A stretch of DNA of 64,000 nt from an uncultured Gemmatimonadaceae bacterium (GCA_963740355.1 CAVUDW010000002.1:1856001-1920000); one strand, 5' to 3'. Positions 42,383 to 55,888 are shown, counted from the first letter of the stretch. Notes: a model not told the origin generated them from the letters alone. Program-made: numbers and translations.

Positions 42383-43714
42383 CTACGCCTCAGCCACCGC
42401 CGGTCGCTCCCAGAGTCGCGTCAGGGCGCCTTCGTGCGTCGCAGTCCAGAGCCAGGCGGCGTCGCCGGCGGCGATGTAGAGATCCGTCGGAAGGAGGGGC
42501 TCCTTGAACTCCTCACGCGTCTCCGGCGGAATGGCTTCGCCCGCCGCCAGCGCGGCTGCCGCTTCGTCGAGCAGAGGGGAGAGGTGGTGCGCGACATGGC
42601 CGATCTGGACCAGTTGGCGACCGTGAATCAGGCCGCCGCCCCCTAGCTGCAGCGCGCCTGCCCAGCGCACGCGACTCTTGCGAGCGAAGAGTGCGCCGAT
42701 GGTTCGTGCGACCGATGCGTGCCGCGCCTCGGGGAAGCCGCAGTTCAATACCATCGCCAGGGTCAACGGCGGTGGGGACGGATCGGCGGCCCGATCGGCA
42801 AGGATGGCCTCGAGCACACGCGTCACCAGCGAGGGTAGTGCATCGATGTAGATCGGTGACGCAATCACGAGCAGGTCGCACTCTCGGAGTGCCGCAACGA
42901 ATGCCTGCAGTGACTCGGCCGAATGGGTCTCGCGCTGCACATGTCGCACTTCCCCTTCGATGCCGCGCATCGCGAGCTGCTCCATCAGTTGTTGCCCAAG
43001 GCTTTCCGATGTGCTCGAGCCGCGTGGCTTTGCGCTACCGACCAGCAGCATCGCACGCTTCGGCGGCGCACCATCGGCGGCGAGTGGCATCACCGGCAGG
43101 AGCTGGTCGACGTTGGCCACCAGCTTAGGTTCGCTCGGCACCTTCGGCAGCGTCAGTGTCGAAACCAGCGCATCACACGCGCCGAACGCCTCACCCACGG
43201 GATGGCGGCGATTGACGATACCGACCGCATGTTTGGGCGAGGCGAAGTTGATCGCGTTGCGCATGGCCAGCACCCGCACCGTCTGCTCGCTGTCGGCGTC
43301 AGCCGCGTCCTGAACGGCGATCACGCCGAGCGACGGGGGATAGGCGTAGCGCGGCACATGGTGCACCTCACCGTCGATCTTGCGGAAGAATGGGAGCAGC
43401 GTGCCCAACGTGCGATCGAGCATCTTCTTCGTCTCCGACGAATAGCTGCCGAATTGCACGGGTGTGACCAGCACGACCACGTCGCTGACGGTGAAGTCGC
43501 GCGAGAGGTCGCGGCCGCCGTCGTCGATCTTGCAGGTGCCGGGCGTATGCGTCCAGCACTCGAAGCAGCCCTGACAGTAGGCAACCGGCACGTCGCGCAG
43601 GATCACCGACTCCACCGCGTATTTGCGCGCGACGAAGTCGGCGGTGAGCCGGGTGGTGATCTCATCGAGCAGCGGATCGGGCCCGAGGGCGCCGTTCAGG
43701 ATCAGTGCGCGCAT
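42383..43714 (-). CDS. Tandem flavodoxin-like protein with an iron-sulfur-flavoprotein Cys motif
   Basis: LILNG, CQGCFECWTHTPGTC, TPVQFGSYS; second domain LLVGSAKP, ASPIYIDALP, NCGFPE. Confidence 0.85.
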   Translation of the reverse strand: MRALILNGALGPDPLLDEITTRLTADFVARKYAVESVILRDVPVAYCQGCFECWTHTPGTCKIDDGGRDLSRDFTVSDVVVLVTPVQFGSYSSETKKMLDRTLGTLLPFFRKIDGEVHHVPRYAYPPSLGVIAVQDAADADSEQTVRVLAMRNAINFASPKHAVGIVNRRHPVGEAFGACDALVSTLTLPKVPSEPKLVANVDQLLPVMPLAADGAPPKRAMLLVGSAKPRGSSTSESLGQQLMEQLAMRGIEGEVRHVQRETHSAESLQAFVAALRECDLLVIASPIYIDALPSLVTRVLEAILADRAADPSPPPLTLAMVLNCGFPEARHASVARTIGALFARKSRVRWAGALQLGGGGLIHGRQLVQIGHVAHHLSPLLDEAAAALAAGEAIPPETREEFKEPLLPTDLYIAAGDAAWLWTATHEGALTRLWERPAVAEA

Positions 43715-44245
43715 ACACGACCTATGGGTCAGGAAGGCTGGATTCGCCCGGAGGCGGGCGGGATGCGACAAGGTTGCGATTTTGCCCCGTCTTTCTCATC
43801 GGCCGTCGCCTGACGGCGTGTGGGGGTGTGCCTGACAGGCGGCGGTTCTGCGCGCGAGGTCTCGCGCGCGCCGCATCGATTGGCGGTGTGCGTCCTCGAC
43901 GATTGCGCACGAATCTCGTGGTGCGCATACACGTATCACGTACTCGACTGACGTTGTTTACCTGAGTACGTCGCACGAGCTCCGCTCGAGCGCGGCAGCA
44001 CATGCATCAGCTTGTGAATGAATATTTGCACACATCTTGCGTAAATCACTTTTGCGTGCAGGTGTGTTGTGCGCGCAGGTGTGAAGTGCGCATTCTGTCT
44101 CGCTCGTCCTGACGCCACTGCGCGACAGCGGGCAGCCGCGAAACTCACCCTGCGACGAAGCGGGCGACGGAGCAACACTCCCGCGCCGCTCGCTCACTCG
44201 GGCATGGGAGTGCAGGGATCGCCACGTCGATTCCAGGGGGGACCG

Positions 44246-46957
44246 ATGCACGAACAGGGCAAGCGCAAGACAGGAAACGGTGGTGGGGCCACTCGTGCGT
44301 CGTCGCCCCCGCGGATCAGCAGCGCCATGCTTGGGCAGAACACGCCGGAGATGGTGGCGGCCATCGAGGCGATGCCAGCGACTGACGGCGCCATCGATTC
44401 AATGTCCGAGATGCTGCGTCAATCAGGCGGTGCCGACACGATGCCCGGGATGTCATTCACCGGCGACGCGGCCACCGAGATGCTGCATGGCATGGACATG
44501 GACGGCGGCGCTGGTGGTGGCGACGACGTGATGCGGGGCGGACCGCCACGCGATGACGCCGCGGCAACCGACACAGGTGGTGAGCAGATACCGGTGCTGC
44601 TCGAATTGCGTGTCGACGCGGGCAATGCGGCGCGGAGTGCGTTCCAGATCACCGGCGCCTTTGCCAACTCGGGCTTCGCGCTCGATGATGGGTTCGAGGC
44701 AATTCCGATGGAGGCGCCGCGTGCAGAAGGAGAGAGTCTGCGTGCGGGAGCGGCAGCCGAAGCCACGCTCATCGTGCGTGGGACGATCGCCGCTGACCAG
44801 ATCGCAGCGCTCGAAGCACGGCCGGATGTGGTCAAGGTCTGGCGCGACACACGTATCGAGCCGTTCGGTGCGTCGATCGCCGAGGTCGAGACACAAACCG
44901 CATTGGTCGCACCGCTGGCCGCATTCGGTGCCTGCCCGATCGGCACCTGCGACTGTTCGCCAGGCACTCCGAAAGGCACGATGGCGGACGTCGCGAACTA
45001 CCTCGGCGTGGACCAGATCTGGAGCGCGGGCTATCGCGGAGAGGGCATCGTGGTCGGTGTCGTCGATGGCGGCATCACCGCGCAAGGCCGTCCGATCAGC
45101 GCGTCGGACACCTCGAAGCCCGACTGGCCGAACAAGCTGGTGCCGAATGTGATCGGCGGGTTCCCGGCGACGAATTGGGGCACGACGGGTGCGGGTTGGG
45201 GATGGCACGGCAACATGACGTCCACCGACGTGCTTGGGATGGCTCCCAATGCACGTGTCTACGACATTCGAATCGGTGATGCGACCATTGCAACGACCAT
45301 CTCCAACGCACTCGCCGGCTTCCAGTGGGCGATCAACCAGCATCGCACCGACGGCACACCGCAGATCCTCACCAACAGCTGGGGTATTTTCCAGGAATCG
45401 TGGGATCCGCTTTATGCGCGCGATCCGAATCATCCCTTCACGCGCAAGGTGGTCGAGGCGCTGAACGAAGGGATCATCGTGATGTTCGCCGCCGGCAACT
45501 GTGGCGGTACCTGTCCCGACGGTCGATGTGGTGCGGATAGCGGTCCCGGTCGCAGCATCTGGGGGGCGAACAGTCACCCGCGTGTGATCACGGTGGGGGC
45601 CGTGAATCGCAACGAACAATTCGTGGGGTACAGCAGCCAGGGCCCCGGTGCACTCGATGCGAACAAGCCGGACTTCTGCTCGATCACACACTTCACCGGT
45701 TTCTTCAACAGTGACAGCGGTACCTCGGCTGCGACTCCGATTGCCGCGGGCGTGGCGGCCCTGCTGAAACAGGCGAGTCCGGGGCTGACACAGGATCAGT
45801 TGAAAGCCACGCTGCGCAACACTGCGAAAGACATCGGACCGGCCGGATGGGATCAGCACTCCGGGGCGGGCATCATTCGACCGCGCATTGCGTTCGACAC
45901 TGTTGCACCCGCACCGGAGCCCTCCGGCCCCGCGGTATCCTGGGGCCCGAATCGACTCGACATCTTCGTGCTCGGCACCAATCGCGCGATGTGGCACAAG
46001 TGGTGGAACGGTGGGTCATGGGGACCGTCGCTCACCGGCTTCGAGTCACTTGGCGGGATCTGCAACACCGCCCCTGAAGTGGTGGCGTGGGGGCCGAATC
46101 GTCTCGACGCATTCGTGCTCGGCACCGATTCCGCGCTCTACCACAAGGCGTGGAATGGCTCGTCGTGGAGCCCGTCGGTGGCTGGATACGAACGCCTCGG
46201 TGGTGTCTGTCAGTCGCGGCCGAGTGTGGCGAGTTGGGGACCGAACCGCCTCGATGCATTCGTGACCGGCACGGATTCCGCGCTGTATCACAAATGGTGG
46301 AACGGCTCCGGATGGGGCCCGTCGGCAACAGGCTTCGAATACATGGGTGGTGTGTGTCTCGGAGAACCGAAGGCGGTCGCGTGGGGACCGAACCGTCTCG
46401 ATGTGTTCGTACTGGGCACCAACCGCGCGTTGTACCACAAGTGGTGGAACGGCTCGGCGTGGGGGCCATCCGTCACGGGGTACGAGTACATGGGCGGCGT
46501 CTGCAGCAGTTCTCCTGAAGTCGTGGCCTGGGGCGCAAACCGCCTCGATGTGTTCGTGCTTGGCACCAACCGCGCGTTGTATCACAAGTGGTGGAACGGC
46601 TCGGCCTGGGGGCCGTCGGTGACCGGGTATGAGTTCATGGGTGGCGTCTGCGCATCACCGCCAACGGTGGTGTCGTGGGGTGCGAACCGGCTCGATGTCT
46701 TCGTGATCGGCACCGATTCGGCGCTCTATCACAAGTGGTGGAATGGCTCGGCGTGGGGCCCGTCCGTCACCGGCTGGGAGAACATGGGCGGCGTCTGCAC
46801 CAGCCCTCCACGCGTCGTGGCGTGGGGGCAGAACCGACTCGACGTCTTCGTCACGGGTACTGATTCGCAAGTCTACCACAAGTGGTGGAACGGATCCGCG
46901 TGGGGACCGTCGCTCACCGGCTGGGAAGCACAGGGAGGAATCGTCACCGGATTCTGA
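44246..46957 (+). CDS. S8 subtilisin-like protease with C-terminal 7x49-aa lectin-type (PLL/DUF346-like) beta-propeller
   Basis: Catalytic D (VVDGG), H (WHGNMT), N (AAGN), S (GTSAATP); seven WGxNRLDxFVxGT..LYHKWW repeats. Start approximate. Confidence 0.9.
45938..46954 (+). repeat. Seven intragenic 147-bp (49-aa) tandem repeats
   Basis: The TGG-GG (Trp-Gly) repeat start recurs at 45941 and 46088, a 147-bp period; seven copies in the translation. Confidence 0.92.
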
Positions 46958-46989
46958 TCACGACGCGGTGAACCAGAGGCAAGTCAACG

Positions 46990-47023
46990 CGGAGCGGCGT
47001 CGGGTGAGTCCGACGCCGCTTCG
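46990..47023. terminator. Strong hairpin between convergent genes
   Basis: AGCGGCGTCGG-gtgagt-CCGACGCCGCT (11-bp perfect stem). Confidence 0.65.
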
Positions 47024-47083
47024 TGTGCGTCCGCCCCACACCCTTTGAACCCCGGCCGTCGCCGCGACGCTGGGCGTGACAGT

Positions 47084-48325
47084 TCAGGCGGAGACGGTGG
47101 CGGGCTGACAGTCGAGCAGATGCCCGTGATGAAAGCCAAGTCGCGGATCGGCATTCTTCGGCATCGGGATGTACTCCTGGATGTCCGGCATCTTCACCCG
47201 CAGGCGAATCGTGTTCGACGGGTAGTCGTAGATCGTGATGTGATTCAGGCCGCGATTGGCGGTGAAGAGCAGCGACTGATCGGCACTCAGCTTGCAGGCG
47301 TGCACCGAGTCCATCATGGTGAATCGACTCACGCGCATCGCGCCAAGCAGGTGCTCGGTCTGTGTGAACAGGCCGCCGCGCGCCAGCGTGTCGTAGAGCT
47401 GCGTCTTCGCCTGGCGCCGATTGGCGAACTGCTCACGAAGGCCAGGCTTCTCGTCGATGATGCGGAAGGTGGCGAAGTCGTCGAGCTGGATGAAGACGAT
47501 CGTCTGGCTCGCGCCATTGCAGAAGATCAACTCCGTGTCGGAGATCGTGAGGTCGCTGTTGATGTGCGCTGGGATGTCGCGGCCGGCGCTCCAGTGGCGC
47601 ACGATCTCTCCAGTCGCGGCATCCACTTCGAACGCGTATTCTCGCAGGTACGAGATCGCCCACTGGTGATAGTCCACGCGGTCCATCGGGTGCACACGAA
47701 ACGAAACGCCGTAGAAGAGGTCCTCGGTGCGATGTGGCACCGTGTGCCAGCAGGTGGCCGGGAGCTTCACGACTCGGATCTCGCCGGATCTGGTGTCCCA
47801 GATCCCCATCTCACGGGCCTCGCCGTGGCGACCCTTGGCAGGGTTGTCCATTGCGCCGAACACGATGTAGCGGCCTGACTTCGTCTGCTGCAGACCGTGT
47901 ACGATGCCCATGCCATGCTGCGCGAGTTTCTCCGGCTTCGAGAGCGACTGCGCGTCGAAGAGGTAGAGATGATCGCCGACGGAAGTGACGAAGCGGCGCT
48001 CGTCGAGCCAGACCGCGTGGGTGCTCCCGCGAAGCGAACTGTCTGGGATCTCGAAGCGGAGCGTCGAGATGCGATCGAGCTCTGCGCCACTGCGTGTATC
48101 GTAGAGCAGCAGGTGCTGGCCAGCGTTGCCCAGAAATCCGATCGAACCGGTTGGGTCTACGGTGGTGGCGTGACCTCCGGCGATGCCGTCGTGGAAGCGG
48201 ATGTTGTAGGCGTAGCTGTTGTCCGCCGGATCGAACAGAAAGATGCAGAGCCCGGCACGACCCTCGAGGCCGTTGATGCCATTGCCATCGAGTGCGATGT
48301 GGAACGCGTAGGGGTACCGCTTCAT
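47084..48325 (-). CDS. Hypothetical His-rich beta-propeller protein, no signal peptide
   Basis: Propeller-like strands (LLLYDTRSG, IWDTRSGE, EVDAATGEI, LSADQSLLFTANRG); strong codon bias. Confidence 0.75.
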   Translation of the reverse strand: MKRYPYAFHIALDGNGINGLEGRAGLCIFLFDPADNSYAYNIRFHDGIAGGHATTVDPTGSIGFLGNAGQHLLLYDTRSGAELDRISTLRFEIPDSSLRGSTHAVWLDERRFVTSVGDHLYLFDAQSLSKPEKLAQHGMGIVHGLQQTKSGRYIVFGAMDNPAKGRHGEAREMGIWDTRSGEIRVVKLPATCWHTVPHRTEDLFYGVSFRVHPMDRVDYHQWAISYLREYAFEVDAATGEIVRHWSAGRDIPAHINSDLTISDTELIFCNGASQTIVFIQLDDFATFRIIDEKPGLREQFANRRQAKTQLYDTLARGGLFTQTEHLLGAMRVSRFTMMDSVHACKLSADQSLLFTANRGLNHITIYDYPSNTIRLRVKMPDIQEYIPMPKNADPRLGFHHGHLLDCQPATVSA

Positions 48326-48453
48326 GTCGCAGATTCCGGTGATGGTTCATCAGTGTCGCGCACAACGATTCGCGCCCGCCTTGCCAGAGCCGCCCCACCC
48401 AATGCACACTTCGCGTTCTGTCGTGTCACAGGAGTGGCCACTCACGAGCTGCC

Positions 48454-48798
48454 ATGCAGAACGACTTCTCTGATCTCGAACAGCGTGCGCTCGAACTTCC
48501 CGTCGGCACGGCCACACCGCTGACACGCGACGAGGTGGATCGTCTGCTGCGTGATCCCGCCTACCGCTCGAGCCTCGGCACACCCGCACACGCCACCCAC
48601 TTTCGCCGGCCCCTCGCCGATGGTCGCGGCATGCACCTGGTGATCGATGCCGAGGGGAACGCGGGTCTGCACTGGGATCGCTTCGACCCACAAGCGAGTC
48701 CGACTGGACTCATGATGCACCTGCTGACCGATGCGCCGGAGCAGGCGCTGTCGCTGTTGGCCGCTGGATCAGCGGTGCTGCGCCGGCTCGGTGGCTGA
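48454..48798 (+). CDS. Small hypothetical protein (GMHLV...HWDRFDP...HL..D)
   Basis: 114-aa ORF with good codon bias filling the gap; its 3' end overlaps the convergent gene by 30 nt. Confidence 0.6.
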   Translation: MQNDFSDLEQRALELPVGTATPLTRDEVDRLLRDPAYRSSLGTPAHATHFRRPLADGRGMHLVIDAEGNAGLHWDRFDPQASPTGLMMHLLTDAPEQALSLLAAGSAVLRRLGG

Positions 48799-49356
48799 CG
48801 CGCGCCGCGATCCTGTCGAGCCGTTGGTGACGAAGACTTCGACCGCCGCACCTAGATCCTGCAGGGTCTTCGCCAGCAACGTCGCTGCTGCATCCTCGAG
48901 CCCTCCCTTCAGCCGTCCCTGACCGAGTGGGCCCAGGGCGCCCGGACCGAGCGACGCCGAGATCTCGAACGACATGCGACTGCCACGTCCGCCCATCGCT
49001 GATTCGAGGCGCGTACTGCCGGAACCGGAGAGGCTGCCTGCCAGCAATCGCGACTCGACGGTCCAATGCGACTCGAGTTTGCCTTCGTGCCAGCTGGCGC
49101 GTTCGACCCACGTGAGCGCGTCACCATCCACGAAGCGTCCCATCGCCGAGGGCAAGGCTGCGCTCGCTCGCCACTCGTGCACGGTGCTGACCACACCATC
49201 GGCATCACCGGCATGTTCGAGTCGCGTGACCGACTCGATCCCCTTCATCCACGATGCCACCGATGGCAGGTCGTCTCGCAACGCAGACCAGACGCGCTCG
49301 GGGGGCACTCGCAGCATCACCATTCGCCGAAGGTTGACCTTCTGGTGTTCGTTCAT
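48769..49356 (-). CDS. SRPBCC/START-fold lipid-binding-like protein
   Basis: VPPERVWSALRD, IESVT, WVERASW, long C-terminal helix; ATGA overlap with the SDR gene. Confidence 0.7.
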   Translation of the reverse strand: MNEHQKVNLRRMVMLRVPPERVWSALRDDLPSVASWMKGIESVTRLEHAGDADGVVSTVHEWRASAALPSAMGRFVDGDALTWVERASWHEGKLESHWTVESRLLAGSLSGSGSTRLESAMGGRGSRMSFEISASLGPGALGPLGQGRLKGGLEDAAATLLAKTLQDLGAAVEVFVTNGSTGSRRASATEPAQHR

Positions 49357-50411
49357 GCACGCTCCGAGTAGGTGTGGAGTTCAGAGAACGGCGCCGAGGC
49401 AGGCACCTGAAGCCAGGCCCGAACGTCGGGTCGGATGTGATCGGTGCGGAGGAGCCAGCTGATTGCGGTTTGCAGCGCAGCCTGCGTCCCGGTCGATCGG
49501 TACCCGATTGCACGAGCGGCGCTGTCGTCGTACCAGTACCAACGTCCCATCATCCGCACTTCGTCTCGCGTCAGCGCGGGAGGCAGCCCGGACGTGCGCG
49601 AAAACCACTCGGCCCAGGCTGCAGTGAGGAAGGCGCCTGTATGTGTCGCCGTCAGCAAGGGGCCCGTCGTACCGCAGAGCGCGGAGATCTGGGAGTGCAG
49701 GTCGCGCCACGACAGGTTTTCAGCGCCGAGGATGTACGAGCGGCCCGGCGTGCCCTTCTCAGCGACGAGCAGATGGCCGCGTGCGATGTCGGTTGCCGCG
49801 ACCACGTTGCAACCACCGGCAAAGGTCGTGCGGAACGGATCGTTGAGATACTTCACGATGATCGCATTGCTTTCCGAGAGCCCGTAATCCCACGCACCCA
49901 TCGTCAGTGTCGGGCAGACGGCGACGAGCTCGATGCCGAGCGAGGCTGCCGTCGAAAACGCCACCGCCGACTGCCTGAACTTCGAGACGGCGTACGCTGA
50001 TGCGTCCTCCGCCGTGAATGATGCGTCCTCGTTCCGTGGCTCGGCTGACGCTGACGACCCGAAGATCACCGATGACGAGGTCAGCACCACACGCTTCACG
50101 CCAGCTCCAGCGGCGGCGGTGATCATGTTTCGCGTGCCATCGATCGCCACCTGCTCGAGCTCGGAAGCGTTGGCGTTCCCGTACGAGAACCGTGCGGCGC
50201 AGTGAAAGACGCAGTCGACACCTGCCGCCGCTGAACGCAACGAGGCTGGGTCGAGTACATCGCCTTCAGACAACTCGATCGGCAGGCCGCTCAGCGCGCG
50301 TCGTGGCGGGCCGCGGCGGACGAGGGCCCGCACGTCCCATCGTTGCGCGAGCAGTTCGCGAACGAGGTTGGCTCCGACGATGCCGGAGGCCCCCGTGACG
50401 AGCGCCTTCAT
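49353..50411 (-). CDS. Extended SDR, NAD-dependent epimerase/dehydratase (HpnA/dihydroflavonol reductase-like)
   Basis: LVTGASGIVG, VFHCAA, LTSSS, YAVSK, DIARGHL, YILGAENL. Confidence 0.9.
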   Translation of the reverse strand: MKALVTGASGIVGANLVRELLAQRWDVRALVRRGPPRRALSGLPIELSEGDVLDPASLRSAAAGVDCVFHCAARFSYGNANASELEQVAIDGTRNMITAAAGAGVKRVVLTSSSVIFGSSASAEPRNEDASFTAEDASAYAVSKFRQSAVAFSTAASLGIELVAVCPTLTMGAWDYGLSESNAIIVKYLNDPFRTTFAGGCNVVAATDIARGHLLVAEKGTPGRSYILGAENLSWRDLHSQISALCGTTGPLLTATHTGAFLTAAWAEWFSRTSGLPPALTRDEVRMMGRWYWYDDSAARAIGYRSTGTQAALQTAISWLLRTDHIRPDVRAWLQVPASAPFSELHTYSERA

Positions 50412-52627
50412 GCCGAAGCCTCGCGCGCTTGTGGCGTGAAAGGCGTGGCCCCGATCGCAGCGAGGTCGCGACCAACGGCCTTGCCCAGCTCGGCGAGAAA
50501 GGTCATGGGTGTGAGGTCGGTCACGGCGCCGATCGGCGAACGCGCTCCGGACACGACACTCGGAGAGCCAAGGTTGCCAGCGAAGTGGGCGAAGCCCAGA
50601 TCATCGATGGCCAGCGGTTGCACTGACCCGGCGGCAGCGCTCTCGTCCGGCGTCGCCCATCCGAAGATCCGCGACACGAGCGCAATCGCGCCGGTGAGCA
50701 GGGCGCGAAGCTCCGAACCTTCCTCGATCGCACCGACGAGGACGGGCGGCTTGCCGATACGAAAGCTGCGCCCATCGTAGGCGGCGCGGAGATTCGCCAT
50801 CGTGCCATCGAAGAAGCGACCGTATGCGTCCGCCACCAGTTCGCCGTGTACGCCAGGCCAGCGTTCGATGCGCGCCGCGGCAAGCATGGTTGGCAGCTTG
50901 AATCGCTGTCGTGCGAAGACCTGTACCTCGACCTGGCCGGCGCCAGTTCGCCGAAAAGCCACGCACCCGTCATCGGAGTCAGCGGATCCATTCACACTTT
51001 GCATCGTGCGCCAATCGATCCGCTGCTCATCGCTCGAGTAGTGCATCACCTCGAGCTTCTCGACATCGATACTGTCGCCACCAAAGACGGCCGTCCAGTT
51101 CGGCTGCGGCAGGTAGAGATTCCGCTCGGCCTGTCGTGTCGGACGTCCTTCGGCATCGCGGGTGATCACACGCCAGGAGCCGCCGAGGTAGTCGTTCATG
51201 TTGCGAATCGACGCCGAGATGTCCACTCGCTCGACGAAGCTGTCGTAGTCGAGCGGGAGTAGGCGTTGCGCGGCGAAGTGGATGTGCCCGGCCACGGTGC
51301 GGAATCGGAAGCCGCGTGAGTCCTGCGGCGCTCCATCCAGCACCCGAGATTGTGCCGCCACGATCCGGCGCGTTTCGTCGAAATCATTTGGCGAGAAGGT
51401 GCGCAGGTCGAGGTTGATCGGCGCCAGCGATTGTCGGACGTCGCCCTTCGTGACGTTGGTGGAGAAGGTCTCGCGTGAACCAGCGAGAAAGCCGAGCAGG
51501 CTCTCGAGGAGGGTCTCGATCCAGTCGCGCACTCGTGCATCGCTGATCTTGTCGAGACGGCCAAGCACGGTTGCCGAGACCTGATCCACGATCACATCGC
51601 GAAAAGGGAAATGCTCGCGATCGGTCACTTGCAGCACGGCGGTCGCAAAGGCGTCCAGTTCAGGCCAGCGGCTACGACTGCGAATCGCGTCGATTCGGGT
51701 GGCCGTCGGATTGGTCCAGTCACGCCATGGCGATGCGTCGCCGTCAAGCACCCATGCCGAGGGCAGACCTACCTGATCGAGCGCACGACCGTTGATGGGT
51801 GAGGAGTGTGGATCACCACTCATCTTCAACGCGCCGATCCAGTCGGCGAGCAGGGCATTGGGCGATGCAATGATCGTGTCGGTCTGGATCGGGTTCGAGA
51901 TTCGGGAGCCCGCGCGTCCGTGACTGCCGACCACCGCATCGATCAGCGCAAAGTCCGGTGGACAGGCGCGCAGCAGTTGCAGCGCGGCGTCTTCCGGCGA
52001 CCAGTGCGTGGCGTCGCATTCGGTGGAGACGAGACCCAGCAGGTTGGCGACGGCGAGCGCGTAACTCCATGCGTCGTCGGTCTTCGCTTTCGCAAAAGAG
52101 ATTCGGATATCCGCTGATGCCCATACGCCGTTGACGCGAAGTGCTCCGGAGTCATCGTAGCGATCGAGCGCCACTGGCTGCGGGTCGTCGTCCACCCACG
52201 CAAAGTCGTATGGCTGCCCTTCCGGTGCCTCGAAGTGATAGCCGATGAGATCGGGGACTGAGAGGCCTTCGCGGTTGCACAACCAGCGGTCCGGCTTGTT
52301 GCGTCCATCGCAGAGCGTGACGTTCGCATAACCGGCAGTTCGCAGCTTGACGACCAGCAACTCGACCAGCTGCGGATCAGTACCCGTGTGCGAGTCGAGG
52401 GCGAACACATCGAGATCAGGCTTGATGACGATCGCGAGGTCACTCTTTCGCCGACGTCGAGACGCCCGTCGCTTGCTGAGCATGCTCCAGAAACCGGCAG
52501 CCTCGAGCGCACGGTCGAGCAACGATTCCGGTGTTGCACCGTGCTCGTGTGCAACCGCGACGGCGACCGGTGCCGTCGTGCTTGCTGGAGTCGCGATGTT
52601 CGAAATCGAAGTGCGCGTGCCTGTCAT
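50408..52627 (-). CDS. DUF362-like domain fused to a C-terminal SRPBCC/START-like domain
   Basis: IVIKPD, TDPQLV, ADIRISFAKAKTD, PDFALID, IIASPNALLAD; C-terminal RIDWRT..S.NGSA..DDG.V.F strands plus a long helix. Start approximate. Confidence 0.7.
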   Translation of the reverse strand: MTGTRTSISNIATPASTTAPVAVAVAHEHGATPESLLDRALEAAGFWSMLSKRRASRRRRKSDLAIVIKPDLDVFALDSHTGTDPQLVELLVVKLRTAGYANVTLCDGRNKPDRWLCNREGLSVPDLIGYHFEAPEGQPYDFAWVDDDPQPVALDRYDDSGALRVNGVWASADIRISFAKAKTDDAWSYALAVANLLGLVSTECDATHWSPEDAALQLLRACPPDFALIDAVVGSHGRAGSRISNPIQTDTIIASPNALLADWIGALKMSGDPHSSPINGRALDQVGLPSAWVLDGDASPWRDWTNPTATRIDAIRSRSRWPELDAFATAVLQVTDREHFPFRDVIVDQVSATVLGRLDKISDARVRDWIETLLESLLGFLAGSRETFSTNVTKGDVRQSLAPINLDLRTFSPNDFDETRRIVAAQSRVLDGAPQDSRGFRFRTVAGHIHFAAQRLLPLDYDSFVERVDISASIRNMNDYLGGSWRVITRDAEGRPTRQAERNLYLPQPNWTAVFGGDSIDVEKLEVMHYSSDEQRIDWRTMQSVNGSADSDDGCVAFRRTGAGQVEVQVFARQRFKLPTMLAAARIERWPGVHGELVADAYGRFFDGTMANLRAAYDGRSFRIGKPPVLVGAIEEGSELRALLTGAIALVSRIFGWATPDESAAAGSVQPLAIDDLGFAHFAGNLGSPSVVSGARSPIGAVTDLTPMTFLAELGKAVGRDLAAIGATPFTPQAREASA

Positions 52628-52857
52628 CTGCGAGAGGGCGAGACGGTGGCGTACGTCTATCGATGTGAATGCTCGTGCAATTGCACTGCAAGAACGAAGT
52701 TGCAAGGTCGTGTTCGCTGATACTTCACACGACTCTTCAATACAGAAGACGTCTTGACGCAGCGAGTGTGCTCATGCAACCTGTGTCGCAATGACAACGT
52801 AGGTTTGATCGCGCGCGTCCACAACGTGCTTCGCTGCAGAAGCAGGAGTGAACGGGA

Positions 52858-53424
52858 ATGAGCGTCAGCGTACCGCAACCGTTCCACACCACGGTGCACG
52901 CCGCGCAGCCGTTTCGCGCGAAAGTCGAGGGCGTTCCGACGTCGTTCACGATTGGAATTTCCGATCTGCCGTCGCTGGATGTGTCGGTGGAGAAGATCCC
53001 GGTGCTGCACCTGAGCGTTGACGCGATCCCCGCGGTGCATCTCAGTGTGGACGCCATTCCACCGTTGCACATCAACATCGACACGCTGCCGCCGATCAAG
53101 GTGGAGCTCGCTCCGATCGAACTCAAGCTCAGCGAAATACCATCGACGCGTGTGCATATCCCGGCAGACTTTGCGGTCAGCCTGTCGCTGCTTGGAATGG
53201 ACTTCGGCTCGGTGCGGCTGTGTGGCGAGGCGCAAGTCATCACCGAGCCGTACAAGCCGAACCCGTGTGAGATCTGCAGTCGGGCACCCGCTGATGCGGT
53301 GATCGTGAAGCCCACCGAGCCGATCGTGCCCAGGCCGAACGATCCTGTCGTGGTGAAGCCGCGCGATCCGGTGGTGGGTCAGCCGGTCACGCCCGTGACG
53401 CCGACGCCACGTCCACCGAATTGA
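52858..53424 (+). CDS. Hypothetical protein with 10-aa (I/L)PxhxhxhD repeats, CxxC and Pro-rich tail
   Basis: AGGAG RBS; repeats IPVLHLSVDA/IPAVHLSVDA/IPPLHINIDT; PCEIC. Confidence 0.8.
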   Translation: MSVSVPQPFHTTVHAAQPFRAKVEGVPTSFTIGISDLPSLDVSVEKIPVLHLSVDAIPAVHLSVDAIPPLHINIDTLPPIKVELAPIELKLSEIPSTRVHIPADFAVSLSLLGMDFGSVRLCGEAQVITEPYKPNPCEICSRAPADAVIVKPTEPIVPRPNDPVVVKPRDPVVGQPVTPVTPTPRPPN

Positions 53425-53427
53425 TGT

Positions 53428-54186
53428 ATGGCGCAGGCGACAAAGACCGAGGGTGAACCGACCGCCGTCCGCTTCCGCGGCATTCCGTCCGGGCTGACAG
53501 GTGTCATCCCCGAGCTGACGGAATCGGCGTCGGAGATTGCGCTCACGATTCGTGGCGTGCGTGAACCGAAGGATTCCATCGACTTCATGGTTCAGTCCGA
53601 CATCGATCCGCGCGTGTTGCGACTCTTCCTGCCGGCGGACGTGGTGCCTGGCAAATACAGCGGTGTCCTGTCGCTCGACGGCAACACTCGACCGGCGCAG
53701 GTGGAAGTTGAGGCTGCACCCCATCTGCGCGCCTTCCCGGAACAGCTGCGACTCACTGCGCGACCCGGTGAGACAGTCAGGCAGCAGCTCACCGTGCTGA
53801 ACGATGGCAACGTGACTGTCACGCTTCGCAAGGTGCAGGCATTCGGAGTGATCCTTGCTGGAGGCATCGAACGGGCGTTGCGTCGTGCCTATGTGACCAG
53901 GCTGGCCGAGACCCAGCGGCGCGTGGATGTGATCGCCGACTCGATCGCCGCGGCACACGGCGGACTGGTGAAGATGTCGCTCGACGGTGGGGCCGTGTCG
54001 CTGCGACCCGGTGAGTTGCGCGAAATCGACGTCACGATCCGGCTTCCCAACGAGCTATCGCCGGGAGCGGAGTATGGTGGCAACTGGGAAGTCGCCGGGC
54101 TCGTCTATCCCGTCATCATCCAGGTATCGGGCACGAAGACCGAGCCGAGTGACGACGAGCATGACGATCCGCCCGTCGTCAACTGA
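53428..54186 (+). CDS. Hypothetical protein with Ig-like beta-sandwich signatures
   Basis: Starts 3 nt after the upstream stop; PGKYSG, PGETVRQQLTVLNDGN, LRPGELREIDVTIRLP, PGAEYGG. Confidence 0.78.
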   Translation: MAQATKTEGEPTAVRFRGIPSGLTGVIPELTESASEIALTIRGVREPKDSIDFMVQSDIDPRVLRLFLPADVVPGKYSGVLSLDGNTRPAQVEVEAAPHLRAFPEQLRLTARPGETVRQQLTVLNDGNVTVTLRKVQAFGVILAGGIERALRRAYVTRLAETQRRVDVIADSIAAAHGGLVKMSLDGGAVSLRPGELREIDVTIRLPNELSPGAEYGGNWEVAGLVYPVIIQVSGTKTEPSDDEHDDPPVVN

Positions 54187-54265
54187 GCAGTCGCTGTGGT
54201 ACGACGGCGAGACGAACCACCGCTCGCATGTGACGTGGGAACGCCAGACCTCTGGAGACTCTACG

Positions 54266-54910
54266 ATGGCTTCGACGACGAAAGCCCGGCCGATGGGCGA
54301 TGTGCCCGGCGCATTCATGGGACTGCTGGCCGCGCAGATGAAGCTCGGGCAGCAGTTGTATGAAGACTTCACCGGAATGAAGGCACCGGACATGACATCG
54401 TCGATGTCGCAGTCGTGGAACGCCTGGCAGGAGGCGCTCATGAATCCTCCCGTGGCGACGCCGTCCTGCAGCGTTCCGCCGCCGTGCTGGATGCCGAAGA
54501 AACTCGGCGACATCACCAGCTACGCCTGCGGCTGCAGCACCGTCAAGGTGAAGATCGAAGTCACGAACTGCGACCGTGTGGCGCGAACCTTCAGCGTGCG
54601 GAGCGATGGCGTGGAGGGGGTGAAGATCGCACCCGACTCCATCAGCCTCAACCCGATGCGGCGGGGGACGATCGAGGTCTCGTTCAAGCTGCCGGAGGAC
54701 ATCGACGAAGGCACCGAGTATGAAACGCTGCTCTGGATCGAGGGCTGCAACCAGCACGTCCTGCGGTGGACCATCGTCGCCGGACACGCGGGGATGGATT
54801 CCACGCACGAAGTGAAGGTCAGCGATTGCCCGGACTACCGGCATCACTGGTACGACCACTTCTACTGCAATCGACCCTGCTCGCACACCCGGGTAACGCG
54901 CAATGGCTGA
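54266..54910 (+). CDS. Hypothetical Cys/His-rich protein (helix + Ig-like domain + DCPDYRHHWYDHFYC tail)
   Basis: GGAGA RBS; CSVPPPCWMP, YACGC, EVTNCD, IEGC; C-terminal His/Cys cluster. Confidence 0.82.
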   Translation: MASTTKARPMGDVPGAFMGLLAAQMKLGQQLYEDFTGMKAPDMTSSMSQSWNAWQEALMNPPVATPSCSVPPPCWMPKKLGDITSYACGCSTVKVKIEVTNCDRVARTFSVRSDGVEGVKIAPDSISLNPMRRGTIEVSFKLPEDIDEGTEYETLLWIEGCNQHVLRWTIVAGHAGMDSTHEVKVSDCPDYRHHWYDHFYCNRPCSHTRVTRNG

Positions 54911-55445
54911 TCGGACACAGATGGAAGACGTTATGCGCCGCGCGTTCGACGCCAACCTGCGTTACTGGGAAACAGTCGGGCGTGCGACCACCGACTACGT
55001 GCAGACAGTCTCGAAGTTGTGGGCCGACGCGCCGATCAGTTGGAAGCCGGCCACCATGACCTGGAACCCGGCCACCTGGGCGGGGCAGCGCACCGCGCAC
55101 GCTGATCACCGTCACGACGCTGCCGTGGCGCCAGCGCTGGTGCTCGAAGGGGTGGCTGGCGCGCAGGTTCGGACGGTGCTGATGATCAGCAATGACCTCA
55201 CCTGTGATGCCGACGCGACGGTCGAGATCTCGACGCTGCGCGGTCCCGATGGCCGCTTCGCGTCGGTCGAGGTCCGCGCCATGCCCGAGTCGTTGACGCT
55301 CGTCGCTGGTGCGCGTGCACCCGTCACGCTGGTGGCCGACATCACCGACGCCTTGCATGTGGACACCGACTATCACGGAGAAGTGACGGTGCCCGGACTG
55401 TCGACGAAAGGCGTGCCGATTGTGGTGCGGCGACGGGCGAAGTAG
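54903..55445 (+). CDS. Hypothetical protein (amphipathic helix + Ig-like domain)
   Basis: 8-nt overlap with the upstream gene; LVLEGVAG, LMISN, PESLTLVAG, YHGEVTVPG. Confidence 0.78.
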   Translation: MADRTQMEDVMRRAFDANLRYWETVGRATTDYVQTVSKLWADAPISWKPATMTWNPATWAGQRTAHADHRHDAAVAPALVLEGVAGAQVRTVLMISNDLTCDADATVEISTLRGPDGRFASVEVRAMPESLTLVAGARAPVTLVADITDALHVDTDYHGEVTVPGLSTKGVPIVVRRRAK

Positions 55446-55528: not shown

Positions 55529-55702
55529 TCAGTCAGGCTCGCGCTGCGCTCTCGCAATGTTGTTCAGCTGGCGCTGCAGCCGATCCAGTCGGTCCTCGAT
55601 CGGCTCGAGTGCGCCGCGGACTATCCAGCGGATGCCGTAGCCGAGCGCCGCGATGACGCAGCCATAGAAGATCAGGTAGGACAGAAATATGCCAAGGAAC
55701 AC
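55529..55702 (-). CDS. Small membrane protein (57 aa; TM helix + coiled coil)
   Basis: GGAG RBS before GTG; FLGIFLSYLIFYGCVIAALGYGI followed by IEDRLDRLQRQL. Confidence 0.6.
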   Translation of the reverse strand: MFLGIFLSYLIFYGCVIAALGYGIRWIVRGALEPIEDRLDRLQRQLNNIARAQREPD

Positions 55703-55793
55703 GTCGGCTCCAGCGAGGTGATAGTAGCGGCGTGATCTGACATTACACCTGTTTCGACAATAAAGACATCGCCGCGCCATCCCGGACTGGTCG

Positions 55794-55840
55794 AACAAAA
55801 ACACCGGGGCCCGTCCCGATTGGCAGGACGGACCCCGGTG
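55794..55840 (-). terminator. Intrinsic terminator for the SnoaL-like gene
   Basis: Minus-strand hairpin CACCGGGG-T-CCGTCC ... GGACGG-G-CCCCGGTG followed by TTTTTGTT. Confidence 0.75.
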
Positions 55841-55888
55841 CGCTTTCATAACCCATTGATGCGTCTGGATTTACCGCTCGGGGCAGCG

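Follow-up and report, generated by a model that had tools for sequence, protein, structure and literature searches.

A rare and patchily distributed gene cluster encoding a His-rich propeller, START-fold, SDR and DUF362 proteins and four proteins without a family in an uncultured Gemmatimonadaceae bacterium

We analysed a 64,000-nucleotide stretch of DNA (the window) from an uncultured Gemmatimonadaceae bacterium and found that genes B to I, together with the small gene J, form a conserved unit that is accessory, rare and patchy in its distribution. The unit looks like an undescribed system that produces a hydrophobic compound and holds it inside the cell. We found no published description of the B–I cluster, and Pfam, NCBIfam and PADLOC gave no encapsulin, BMC, gas-vesicle or defence family, in agreement with the preliminary description of this DNA, which had recognised no named system. 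For the nine proteins A–I, no encapsulin, BMC, gas vesicle or R-body family was matched at E ≤ 0.01, and no shell-protein family was matched by B, F, H or I even at E ≤ 10. The PADLOC anti-phage models returned a generic subtilase for A only and nothing for B–I.

Gene layout and conservation of the cluster

The coordinates of the A–I reading frames agree with those given previously (Table 1), and so do the junctions, with 4-nt overlaps between E and D and between D and C, a 3-nt gap between F and G, a 79-nt gap between G and H, and an 8-nt overlap between H and I. The two proposed operons do diverge from a common intergenic region, which lies within the 500-nt bin of lowest GC (0.586) in the 20 kb profiled and contains no sigma-70-like site. 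Ten genes had been counted, nine of which were named; the tenth real gene is J, located between B and C. The AT-richer boundary described on the left is weak, with a GC of 0.628 versus 0.66–0.67. The domain calls for A, B, C, D and E hold, the DUF362-START architecture being visible only by fold comparison. As to the reported lack of signal peptides, a crude hydropathy check gave an N-terminal 10-residue hydropathy maximum of at most 1.8 for A–I, versus 2.9 and 2.6 for two exported neighbours; the hydrophobic N-terminus seen in these neighbours and missing from A–I speaks for a cytoplasmic location.

Table 1. Features of the cluster and its flank, in positions of the window
Feature	Position	Strand	Description
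A	44246-46957	+	S8 subtilase with C-terminal DUF346 lectin-like propeller
B	47084-48325	-	413-aa His-rich β-propeller without Pfam family
J	48454-48798	+	114-aa conserved small protein without family
C	48769-49356	-	195-aa START/SRPBCC protein
D	49353-50411	-	352-aa extended SDR, HpnA-like, under the HpnA cut-off
E	50408-52627	-	739-aa protein: N-terminal DUF362, middle of unknown fold, C-terminal START-fold domain
Divergent intergenic region	52628-52857	.	Separates the E-D-C and F-G-H-I operons
F	52858-53424	+	188-aa protein with 10-residue β-repeats
G	53428-54186	+	252-aa protein, two Ig-like domains and a conserved helical insert
H	54266-54910	+	214-aa protein, N-terminal helix and Ig-like domain, Cys/His-rich motifs
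I	54903-55445	+	180-aa protein, N-terminal helix and Ig-like domain; H homologue

The order and orientation of B-C-D-E/F-G-H-I are kept in all three other Gemmatimonadales genome loci, at 47–89% identity. At least one of C, D and E adjoins B in 73 of 80 metagenome loci retrieved through it (C in 67, D in 57 and E in 42), and the seven without them are contigs of 1.5–4.6 kb. B is convergent with E-D-C in some loci and co-directional, as B-E-D-C, in others. Eighteen loci, those with at least 2.5 kb beyond E, are judgeable for F–I; F, G, H or I genes are located beside E or B in 11 of them, and the cassette is also found in L053. L022 and L023 appear to come from a single organism entered twice. 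The other seven judgeable loci contain B–E with no F–I within reach, which indicates that the two halves can work apart.

The adjacency of B–E and F–I recurs in loci of 44–68% GC and in at least four arrangements, with F–I divergent from E, co-directional as F-G-H-I-E-D-C, upstream of B, or on the B side. Related loci altogether span 34–72% GC, and the sources named are Gemmatimonas, Chthoniobacterales and Nitrospirae. B occurs in 2 of 41 relatives and in 2 of 301 genomes of the phylum, and G occurs in 7 of 41 and 5 of 301, respectively. The B–I unit, with J, has probably been passed between distant bacterial lineages.

The preliminary description had joined three sub-blocks into one system. 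Two of them, the propeller/lipid-binding/redox operon and the set of four unknown genes, are found together in loci that differ widely in GC and gene order, so the refuting condition given there, a lack of co-occurrence in other genomes, does not hold for these two; the S8 protease-lectin does not accompany them. A belongs to Peptidase S8 (PF00082, 105.2 bits, cut-off 21.8), with D-, H- and S-containing motifs recognised by eye in its translation, and also contains DUF346 repeats (114 bits). No A-like gene stands beside B in any of the 80 metagenome loci or the three Gemmatimonadales genome loci (L014–L016). The only congener with an S8 gene at the position of A, G013, carries a different protease of the fervidolysin type, which shares 28% identity with A over 126 residues and has a different architecture. 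A is a local neighbour outside the conserved unit B–I. The suggestion that a shell or granule arises from the four unknown proteins through maturation by A could draw on A adjoining B in the window and the other S8 gene adjoining B in G013, but the two proteases are unlike each other, and an A-like gene is present beside none of the 83 related loci, L015 and L016 among them. Processing by the S8 protease thus has no basis, and we regard this explanation as extremely improbable and close to refuted.

The enzyme genes and their lineage-specific neighbours

B has no Pfam or NCBIfam match. Its AF2 model is a β-propeller (pLDDT 84, pTM 0.88), and the best matches in the fold comparison (VIA) are YVTN and lactonase-type propellers with Z values of 26–31. 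B resembles the His-lined seven-bladed propeller enzymes in fold, such as 6-phosphogluconolactonase (Z 28.7), SBP56 (2ece, Z 26.4) and N2OR (2iwf, Z 25.9), but has no sequence similarity to lactonases, SBP56 or N2OR, and its matches tie with WD40 and designer propellers. All these fold matches are tied and non-specific (Z 25–31) and are silent on chemistry. There are 878 homologues of B, and the 120 listed of these 878 are all at least 59% identical and unnamed. Identity is 57–65% in loci of 34–72% GC, and B is the most conserved gene of the unit. Ten His residues are invariant, approximately one per blade-sized segment; their position at the hub is an assignment by secondary-structure register only, not by coordinates. 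B is presumed to be a metalloenzyme with a putative metal site.

C falls within SRPBCC/START through DUF2505 (29.6 bits, cut-off 26.9), Polyketide_cyc2 lies just below its cut-off (27.2 versus 27.4 bits), and the profile of C weakly matches the START-like structure 2d4r (E 0.014). E has an N-terminal DUF362 domain (PF04015, 53.2 bits, cut-off 24) that occupies residues 66–265 and covers profile positions 1–198 of 200; to our knowledge, DUF362 has no established function. The START part of E has no Pfam match even at E ≤ 10, and the hhalign probability between this C-terminal domain and the C family is 0.2%, which places it outside START at the level of sequence. In the AF2 model of the C-terminal 345 residues (pLDDT 74, core 90–98), two successive strands, two helices, six strands and a long helix form a helix-grip fold. 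Every Foldseek PDB match listed for this domain (best E 6e-7) is a START, Bet v 1 or cyclase protein, and comparison with 2d4r gives a TM of 0.70 by target. C, above its cut-off, and the E domain, by its helix-grip fold, therefore resemble START/SRPBCC proteins such as StAR, CERT, Coq10-type proteins and TTHA0849, but the E domain differs from the START families in showing no detectable sequence similarity to them or to C and in being fused to DUF362. DUF362 shares a clan (Pfam CL0471) with the LarA family DUF2088 (PMC11770544). E is like this clan in its N-terminal domain, above the DUF362 cut-off, but has no ferredoxin domain.

D has a Gly-rich N-terminus and a YxxxK motif and is classed as an extended SDR only, from its match to Epimerase (PF01370, 100.9 bits). 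The nearest models are those of HpnA, a hopanoid-associated SDR, and SdmB, a sterol C-4 demethylation reductase, but D is under both cut-offs: HpnA (TIGR03466), the best NCBIfam model, gives 237.6 bits against 367.65, and SdmB gives 142 bits against 600, which leaves D outside both families. The nearest solved structure is 3wj7, a 'putative oxidoreductase' (143 bits). Hopanoid or sterol genes (SHC/OSC, SdmA) are present in none of the annotated neighbourhoods.

J was found through a conserved block on the opposite strand in an alignment of the B–C gap. It diverges from B, shares 30 nt with the 3' end of C and has no Pfam match. Homologues with E values of 1e-28 to 1e-67 are kept in seven related loci (L014–L020) and in none of the others. 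J was seen only in Gemmatimonadota-type loci, and in other lineages a PAP2 lipid phosphatase is located at that place. The phosphatase gene is divergent from B in 22 of the 80 loci, and the proteins of two of these 22, which were scanned, score 64.7 and 64.8 bits with PF01569 (cut-off 27.2). Neither the cluster in the window nor its close relatives include PAP2; this genome has PAP2-like genes only at other places, the nearest approximately 0.7 Mb from the window on the same contig. In addition, an ABC1/UbiB kinase adjoins E in L055, and three loci have a helical protein of ~140 aa between B and E; no F–I was seen in these three, of which only L033 is long enough to judge. The two START folds, the SDR nearest HpnA and SdmB, the PAP2 genes and the ABC1/UbiB kinase point to a lipid theme; against it, none of the enzymes that would define a substrate is universal.

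F, G, H and I as a movable cassette

None of F, G, H and I is above any Pfam or NCBIfam cut-off. F contains about six 10-residue repeats with alternating hydrophobic and polar residues, each beginning near [ILV]P, in a register of residues 37, 47, 57, 67 and 77; they are followed by a C-terminal block, conserved in 17 homologues that vary in repeat number, and by a Pro-rich tail. For G, the representative clusters number 1202 at E ≤ 1e-3 and 173 at ≤ 1e-30, and 47 of 47 close homologues are unnamed or 'hypothetical'; the Atlas model of one homologue (P0024) is like two-domain NPCBM_assoc/CARDB proteins (TM ~0.5). H contains 9 Cys and 7 His, the H-type Ig-like core extends over residues 60–167 of the L015 homologue, and H and I are homologous (hhalign probability 98.6%, E 9e-16).

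The likeness of G, H and I to PapD-like, MSP and CARDB/NPCBM_assoc Ig-like domains lies in the fold, but the three proteins have no signal peptide, usher or family-level match, and the Cys/His motifs of H and the helical insert of G were found named in none of these families. Ig-like folds such as those of CARDB, NPCBM_assoc and PapD usually belong to surface rather than cytoplasmic proteins, which argues against a cytoplasmic location. F–I might leave the cytoplasm through an export route not yet recognised and assemble on the cell surface or in the periplasm, perhaps into a donor-strand polymer of the PapD kind; the enzymes would then supply a lipid anchor or envelope lipid for this structure. 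Besides the folds, matches to PapD_N under the cut-off (11.8–15 bits, cut-off 23) in 5 of 11 I-family members, a secreted CHRD/PEP-CTERM protein after the cassette in G004 and G005, and the membrane nature of PAP2 agree with export. However, no signal-peptide-like N-terminus is present in F, G, H and I of the window or visible in their aligned homologues, the gene maps contain no usher and show no conserved secretin or transporter gene either, so we consider export improbable.

F–I is modular. In other Gemmatimonadota, diverged cassettes adjoin a polyprenyl synthetase, a geranylgeranyl-reductase-like FAD enzyme or both (G005, G004, G002, G124 and G086), or a KS-AT-KR-ACP-MT polyketide synthase (G019). 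It could be supposed that B–E and F–I are independent units that share islands and whose adjacency has no functional meaning, given that F–I is missing from seven judgeable loci, exists without B–E in other genomes, and that both halves are rare, patchy accessory genes. This is quite improbable, since the adjacency recurs over a wide range of GC and arrangements, and F–I without B–E still stands beside lipid-type enzymes in all six annotated contexts.

The accompaniment of three different enzyme sets by one cassette, and the existence of B–E without it, would also suit a role of F–I as scaffold, chaperones or regulators, by which the adjacent enzymes are organised or controlled as a metabolon, with the Cys/His motifs of H and F as a metal or redox site. 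The co-variation of F and H also speaks for this role: in L066 and L083, F has lost its Cys residues, and a Cys-rich tail of H replaces the His/Trp/Tyr-rich C-terminal motif (F likewise has no Cys in L069 and L081, from the F alignment only). Four structural-looking Ig-fold proteins and a repeat protein of variable length would be unusual as a regulator, and F–I gave no match to a DNA-binding, kinase or nucleotide-binding domain; overall, we think this role unlikely.

Phasins and inclusion coats of PHA granules and lipid droplets provide a working analogy, as F–I are small, abundant-looking and non-enzymatic, have N-terminal helices and, by this analogy, may likewise be encoded beside enzymes for a hydrophobic product. 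The N-terminal motif of H and I is one that we take to resemble phasins. Phasin_2 was matched below its cut-off, with 16.3 bits, by one of 20 proteins scanned, the I-family member of L089 (one of 11 in that family); no F–I member is above the Phasin cut-off of 24.9, and G, H and I are mostly Ig-fold, a fold that we know of in no phasin or perilipin. No PHA synthase or wax/TAG synthase is located nearby.

A proposed cytoplasmic lipid pathway

Our preferred reading, which is tentative, is that a hydrophobic lipid, probably an isoprenoid one, is modified by enzymes of the cytoplasm and held by an F–I assembly. C and the C-terminal domain of E, both of START fold, would lift the lipid from the membrane or keep it in the cytoplasm, and in other lineages the PAP2 phosphatase would first strip a phosphate. 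The lipid would then be modified by D, an NAD(P)-dependent SDR, by the DUF362 part of E and by the His-rich B; B and possibly H would use metal. F-G-H-I, as cytoplasmic Ig-fold proteins, would jointly form a coat, carrier or scaffold that binds the product, in which F may supply a run of amphipathic β-strand repeats and H and I their N-terminal helices; such a complex might form a visible structure.

A more specific and doubtful version is that F-G-H-I are components of a new protein-bounded cytoplasmic lipid body or carrier in bacteria and that B represents a new metal-dependent propeller enzyme family. If this is true, the enzymes of that family would act on the lipid concerned, and F–I would constitute an Ig-fold coat with an amphipathic β-repeat subunit, pluggable onto B–E, onto a polyprenyl synthase and reductase, or onto a PKS.

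Gene layout and boundaries

ORF calls in the window bore out the positions and junctions of A to I in the preliminary description, overlaps and gaps included. We recognised J as the tenth gene of the interval because the apparent gap between B and C is kept in seven related loci with a coding-like pattern; J and C, on opposite strands, overlap by 30 nt at their 3′ ends. J was found in 7 Gemmatimonadota-type loci and was undetected in the remaining loci. The block from B to I (47084-55445) spans ~8.4 kb, and six of the ten interval genes (B, F, G, H, I, and J), together with two thirds of E, belong to no family. By crude hydropathy, the N-termini of A to I lack signal-peptide-like hydrophobicity, in agreement with the earlier remark that none has an evident signal peptide, and those of two flanking exported proteins possess it.

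Genes of the interval, with window positions, strands, and junctions
Gene	Position	Strand	Description
A	44246-46957	+	ORF; S8-lectin protease
B	47084-48325	-	ORF; His-rich propeller
J	48454-48798	+	114 aa, between B and C on the opposite strand, no family
C	48769-49356	-	ORF; START/SRPBCC; 4-nt overlap with D
D	49353-50411	-	ORF; SDR; 4-nt overlaps with E and C
E	50408-52627	-	ORF; DUF362-START; 4-nt overlap with D
F	52858-53424	+	ORF; four-gene cassette; 3-nt gap to G
G	53428-54186	+	ORF; four-gene cassette; 79-nt gap to H
H	54266-54910	+	ORF; four-gene cassette; 8-nt overlap with I
I	54903-55445	+	ORF; four-gene cassette

The window DNA, from a member of the Gemmatimonadota, has a GC content of ~65%, and GC was lowest, over the 20 kb profiled, in the bin that holds the divergent region between E-D-C and F-G-H-I (52628-52857). 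A sigma-70 promoter scan returned one site against 1.7 expected by chance, and no convincing sigma-54 site was seen in the divergent region when read by eye. The terminator scan returned seven sites against a chance expectation of 5.5; the only one that looks real is a strong 18-bp hairpin with a T-run, located 3′ of a SnoaL-like gene (55801-55841, minus strand) at the right edge of the cluster. Because this hairpin sits within the ORF at 55529-55849 (minus strand), that ORF was rejected as probably spurious. Immediately to the left of the interval, 42383-43771 (minus strand) encodes a 462-aa protein with two flavodoxin-like/FMN-reductase halves; its homologue directly adjoins B in the near-identical metagenome contig L017, where no S8 gene was seen in the ~490 nt present before the contig end.

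Composition of the unit across loci

A search of genome contigs with a single peptide pattern gave three loci, and scanning metagenomes with the profile of B gave 283 relatives in 437 pattern matches, of which the best 80 loci were kept, so that this sample leans to B-like sequences. Gene starts in the loci were chosen by script, and because many loci are short, a missing gene mostly reflects the end of a contig. In L014 (genome G013), L015 (genome G215), and L016, B-C-D-E lies on one strand and F-G-H-I on the other in the same order, and the unit genes are 47-89% identical to those of the window. Among the best 80 of the 283 relatives, C, D, or E adjoins B in 73 loci (C in 67, D in 57, and E in 42), and the seven loci with none of these beside B sit on contigs 1.5-4.6 kb long. 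Most loci have B convergent with E-D-C, and some have the order B-E-D-C.

The cassette could be judged in the 18 loci with E present and at least 2.5 kb past E. With iterated profiles, 11 of these showed F, G, H, or I beside E or B (L022, L023, L034, L041, L044, L051, L066, L069, L081, L083, and L089), and none was in reach in the other seven (L033, L049, L055, L058, L068, L078, and L091). L022 and L023 probably represent one organism, since their gene coordinates are identical. The placement of F-I varies: it is divergent from E, co-directional as F-G-H-I-E-D-C, or upstream of B. L081 carries the cassette without G, L053 has it on the B side, and the contig of L046 ends inside G. Three clusters (c4, c10, and c11) were discarded as antisense or out-of-frame shadows of real genes. 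The loci come from soils, sediments, and waters and range in GC content from 34 to 72%. Homologue taxonomy was taken mostly from three source names, Atlas labels, and GC content: source names of B homologues include Chthoniobacterales and Nitrospirae, Atlas labels of the G and H families include Pseudomonadota and Bacteroidota, and close homologues are named Gemmatimonas and Gemmatimonadaceae.

The protease A, an S8 subtilase with DUF346 lectin-type repeats, had been counted as part of the system. An A-like gene is present in none of the three other Gemmatimonadales genome loci; its place is taken by a fervidolysin-type S8 in G013, a GGDEF protein in L015, and, beyond those three loci, a metallo-beta-lactamase-fold protein in L019. 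Of the three sub-blocks proposed to occur together, the B-E enzymes and F-I stand and A does not, and we are highly confident that the unit consists of B to I, with J, and that A lies outside it. The S8 next to B (L014:1724-3277) in G013, the closest relative, has a fervidolysin-type prodomain and no lectin part; an S8 at the same B-side position in the window and in G013 reflects either a shared insertion site or a coincidence.

The sole extra recurrent gene encodes a PAP2 lipid phosphatase, which is divergent from B in 22 of the 80 loci. J occupies this place in Gemmatimonadota-type loci, and in this genome PAP2-like genes occur only away from the cluster. Between B and E, three loci encode a helical protein of ~140 aa that belongs to no family (L033:7964-8497, L049:3751-4179, and L096:2460-2888). 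F-I was seen in none of the three, of which L033 alone has the length needed for a judgement. The polyprenyl synthetase of a sister cassette adjoins a comparable helical protein of 141 aa (L010:13-438). The protein between B and E may be an alternative partner to F-I. An ABC1/UbiB-type atypical kinase (L055:6325-8223, 253 bits) directly adjoins E in a locus without F-I, and both L033 and L055 have sigma-54 activators of the NtrC type close to the cluster. On the uncultured Gemmatimonadales chromosome of L016, the cassette is followed by two huge ORFs of 974 and 1260 aa (L016:12167-18753), the second being a DUF6603 protein.

The propeller and the enzymes

B has no sequence match in Pfam, NCBIfam, or the PDB, and its model is a β-propeller (pLDDT 84, pTM 0.88). 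In structure it is closest to seven-bladed YVTN and lactonase-type propellers, but many further matches tie with these at Z 25-31, and the likeness of B to lactonase/SBP56/N2OR-type propellers therefore gives no chemistry. An SBP56-like propeller near the diverged cassette of the relative G005 shows no similarity to B. Ten histidines (52, 71, 103, 143, 194, 244, 254, 362, 399, and 400) are invariant among 32 homologues; they lie mostly in or beside a strand with a spacing of about one blade, from which we infer a putative metal site at the hub, placed by strand register rather than by coordinates. B is 57-65% identical to the window protein in 76 loci among the best 80 of 283. Identity above 57% is typical for core machinery and atypical for a rare accessory gene, and B is kept above this level across all loci despite the rarity of the gene.

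C is an SRPBCC/START protein whose profile gave a single weak match (2d4r) among PDB sequences, where the B and E profiles gave nothing useful. D is an extended SDR with a Gly-rich motif and YxxxK, nearest to HpnA and SdmB but below both cut-offs, and its closest solved relative is an uncharacterised oxidoreductase. E begins with a DUF362 domain, and its C-terminal third matched nothing by sequence, C included. The model of this third adopts a helix-grip fold with top PDB matches that are all START-superfamily, so the predicted structure supports the earlier reading of E as DUF362-START. In the metagenome loci, C is ~26-37% identical to its window counterpart, D 40-53%, and E 31-47%. In comparison with known systems, C and the C-terminus of E resemble START lipid-transfer proteins, D resembles HpnA/SdmB-type SDRs, and the divergent neighbour in other lineages resembles PAP2 phosphatases. 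The DUF362 domain resembles the DUF362/LarA clan (PMC11770544). No description of the cluster was found among the titles and abstracts searched in the open-access literature, DUF362 papers included, and no open-access paper was found on DUF362 together with SRPBCC.

The F-I cassette and its proposed role

None of F, G, H, and I reached any family cut-off, as anticipated when they were called unknown, and no defence or shell family matched, in line with the view that this is no named system. F contains about six 10-residue repeats with hydrophobic/polar alternation, the number differing among homologues, followed by a conserved block and a Pro-rich tail. G comprises two Ig-like domains and a conserved helical insert. 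After an N-terminal helix, H and I carry Ig-like domains that are homologous to each other (hhalign probability 98.6%), and H has additional Cys/His-rich motifs. The Ig domains resemble the PapD/CARDB type. The number of representative clusters recovered with the G profile was 1202 at E<=1e-3 and 173 at <=1e-30, and some of the weakest matches may be Ig-like proteins of other descent. In L066 and L083, F lacks Cys and the C-terminal His/Trp/Tyr-rich motif of H is replaced by a Cys-rich tail; this joint variation hints that F and H may share a site. A complex prediction of F(1-150), G, H, and I with G as the partner gave an ipSAE of 0.00 twice, in uncontrolled runs that carry no weight either way.

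Among 41 relatives, B was found in 2 and G in 7; among 301 genomes sampled across the phylum, B was found in 2 and G in 5. Where G occurs without B, the order F-G-H-I is still kept, at ~25-40% identity. In G005, G004, and G002, the genes divergent from the cassette encode a small helical protein, a polyprenyl synthetase, and an FAD enzyme resembling geranylgeranyl reductase. In G124 the divergent neighbour is such an FAD enzyme, in G086 the cassette lies 3′ of a polyprenyl synthetase, and in G019 a more distant form of it is divergent from a KS-AT-KR-ACP-MT polyketide synthase. Wherever annotated, with G018 left out, the cassette thus stands beside enzymes that make hydrophobic chains. In G004 and G005, the diverged cassette has hybrid NRPS-PKS genes at a distance of a few kb (L010:7441-15998 and L009:278-3613; A-T-KS-AT-aminotransferase and C-A-T with a TubC docking domain), and these are preceded by a CHRD/PEP-CTERM secreted protein.

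The enzyme half would form a short cytoplasmic route acting on a membrane-derived hydrophobic molecule, which the two START domains would extract or hold. In many lineages a PAP2 enzyme would remove phosphate, as from prenyl diphosphates, and the SDR D, the DUF362 domain of E, and the His-rich propeller B would modify the molecule. The PAP2 enzyme, the HpnA/SdmB-like SDR, and the polyprenyl synthase/reductase partners of the sister cassettes favour an isoprenoid substrate, an assignment that we hold loosely. That the unit handles a lipid seems to us somewhat probable. The four cassette proteins could assemble into a soluble complex that binds the product, whether as coat, carrier, or scaffold. 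This is suggested by the amphipathic β-repeats in F, by the helices at the N-termini of H and I, by the close coupling of F with G and of H with I, by the lack of catalytic signatures, and by the movement of the cassette among lipid pathways; we advance the coat or carrier role tentatively and consider it rather doubtful. To our knowledge, very hydrophobic cytoplasmic products are coated by phasins or by a small number of lipid-droplet proteins. For F-I, these are the nearest working analogy only, a Phasin_2 match being sub-threshold and seen in one of 20 proteins.

The gene set is largely without families yet is kept as a unit over loci of widely differing GC content, and its size of ~8.4 kb is convenient for heterologous expression. 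The occurrence of F-I beside three kinds of lipid-making enzymes offers a concrete and testable way into the cytoplasmic handling of very hydrophobic products by bacteria. If the enzymes do make a distinct isoprenoid or other lipid, the product could be an unassigned environmental lipid biomarker.
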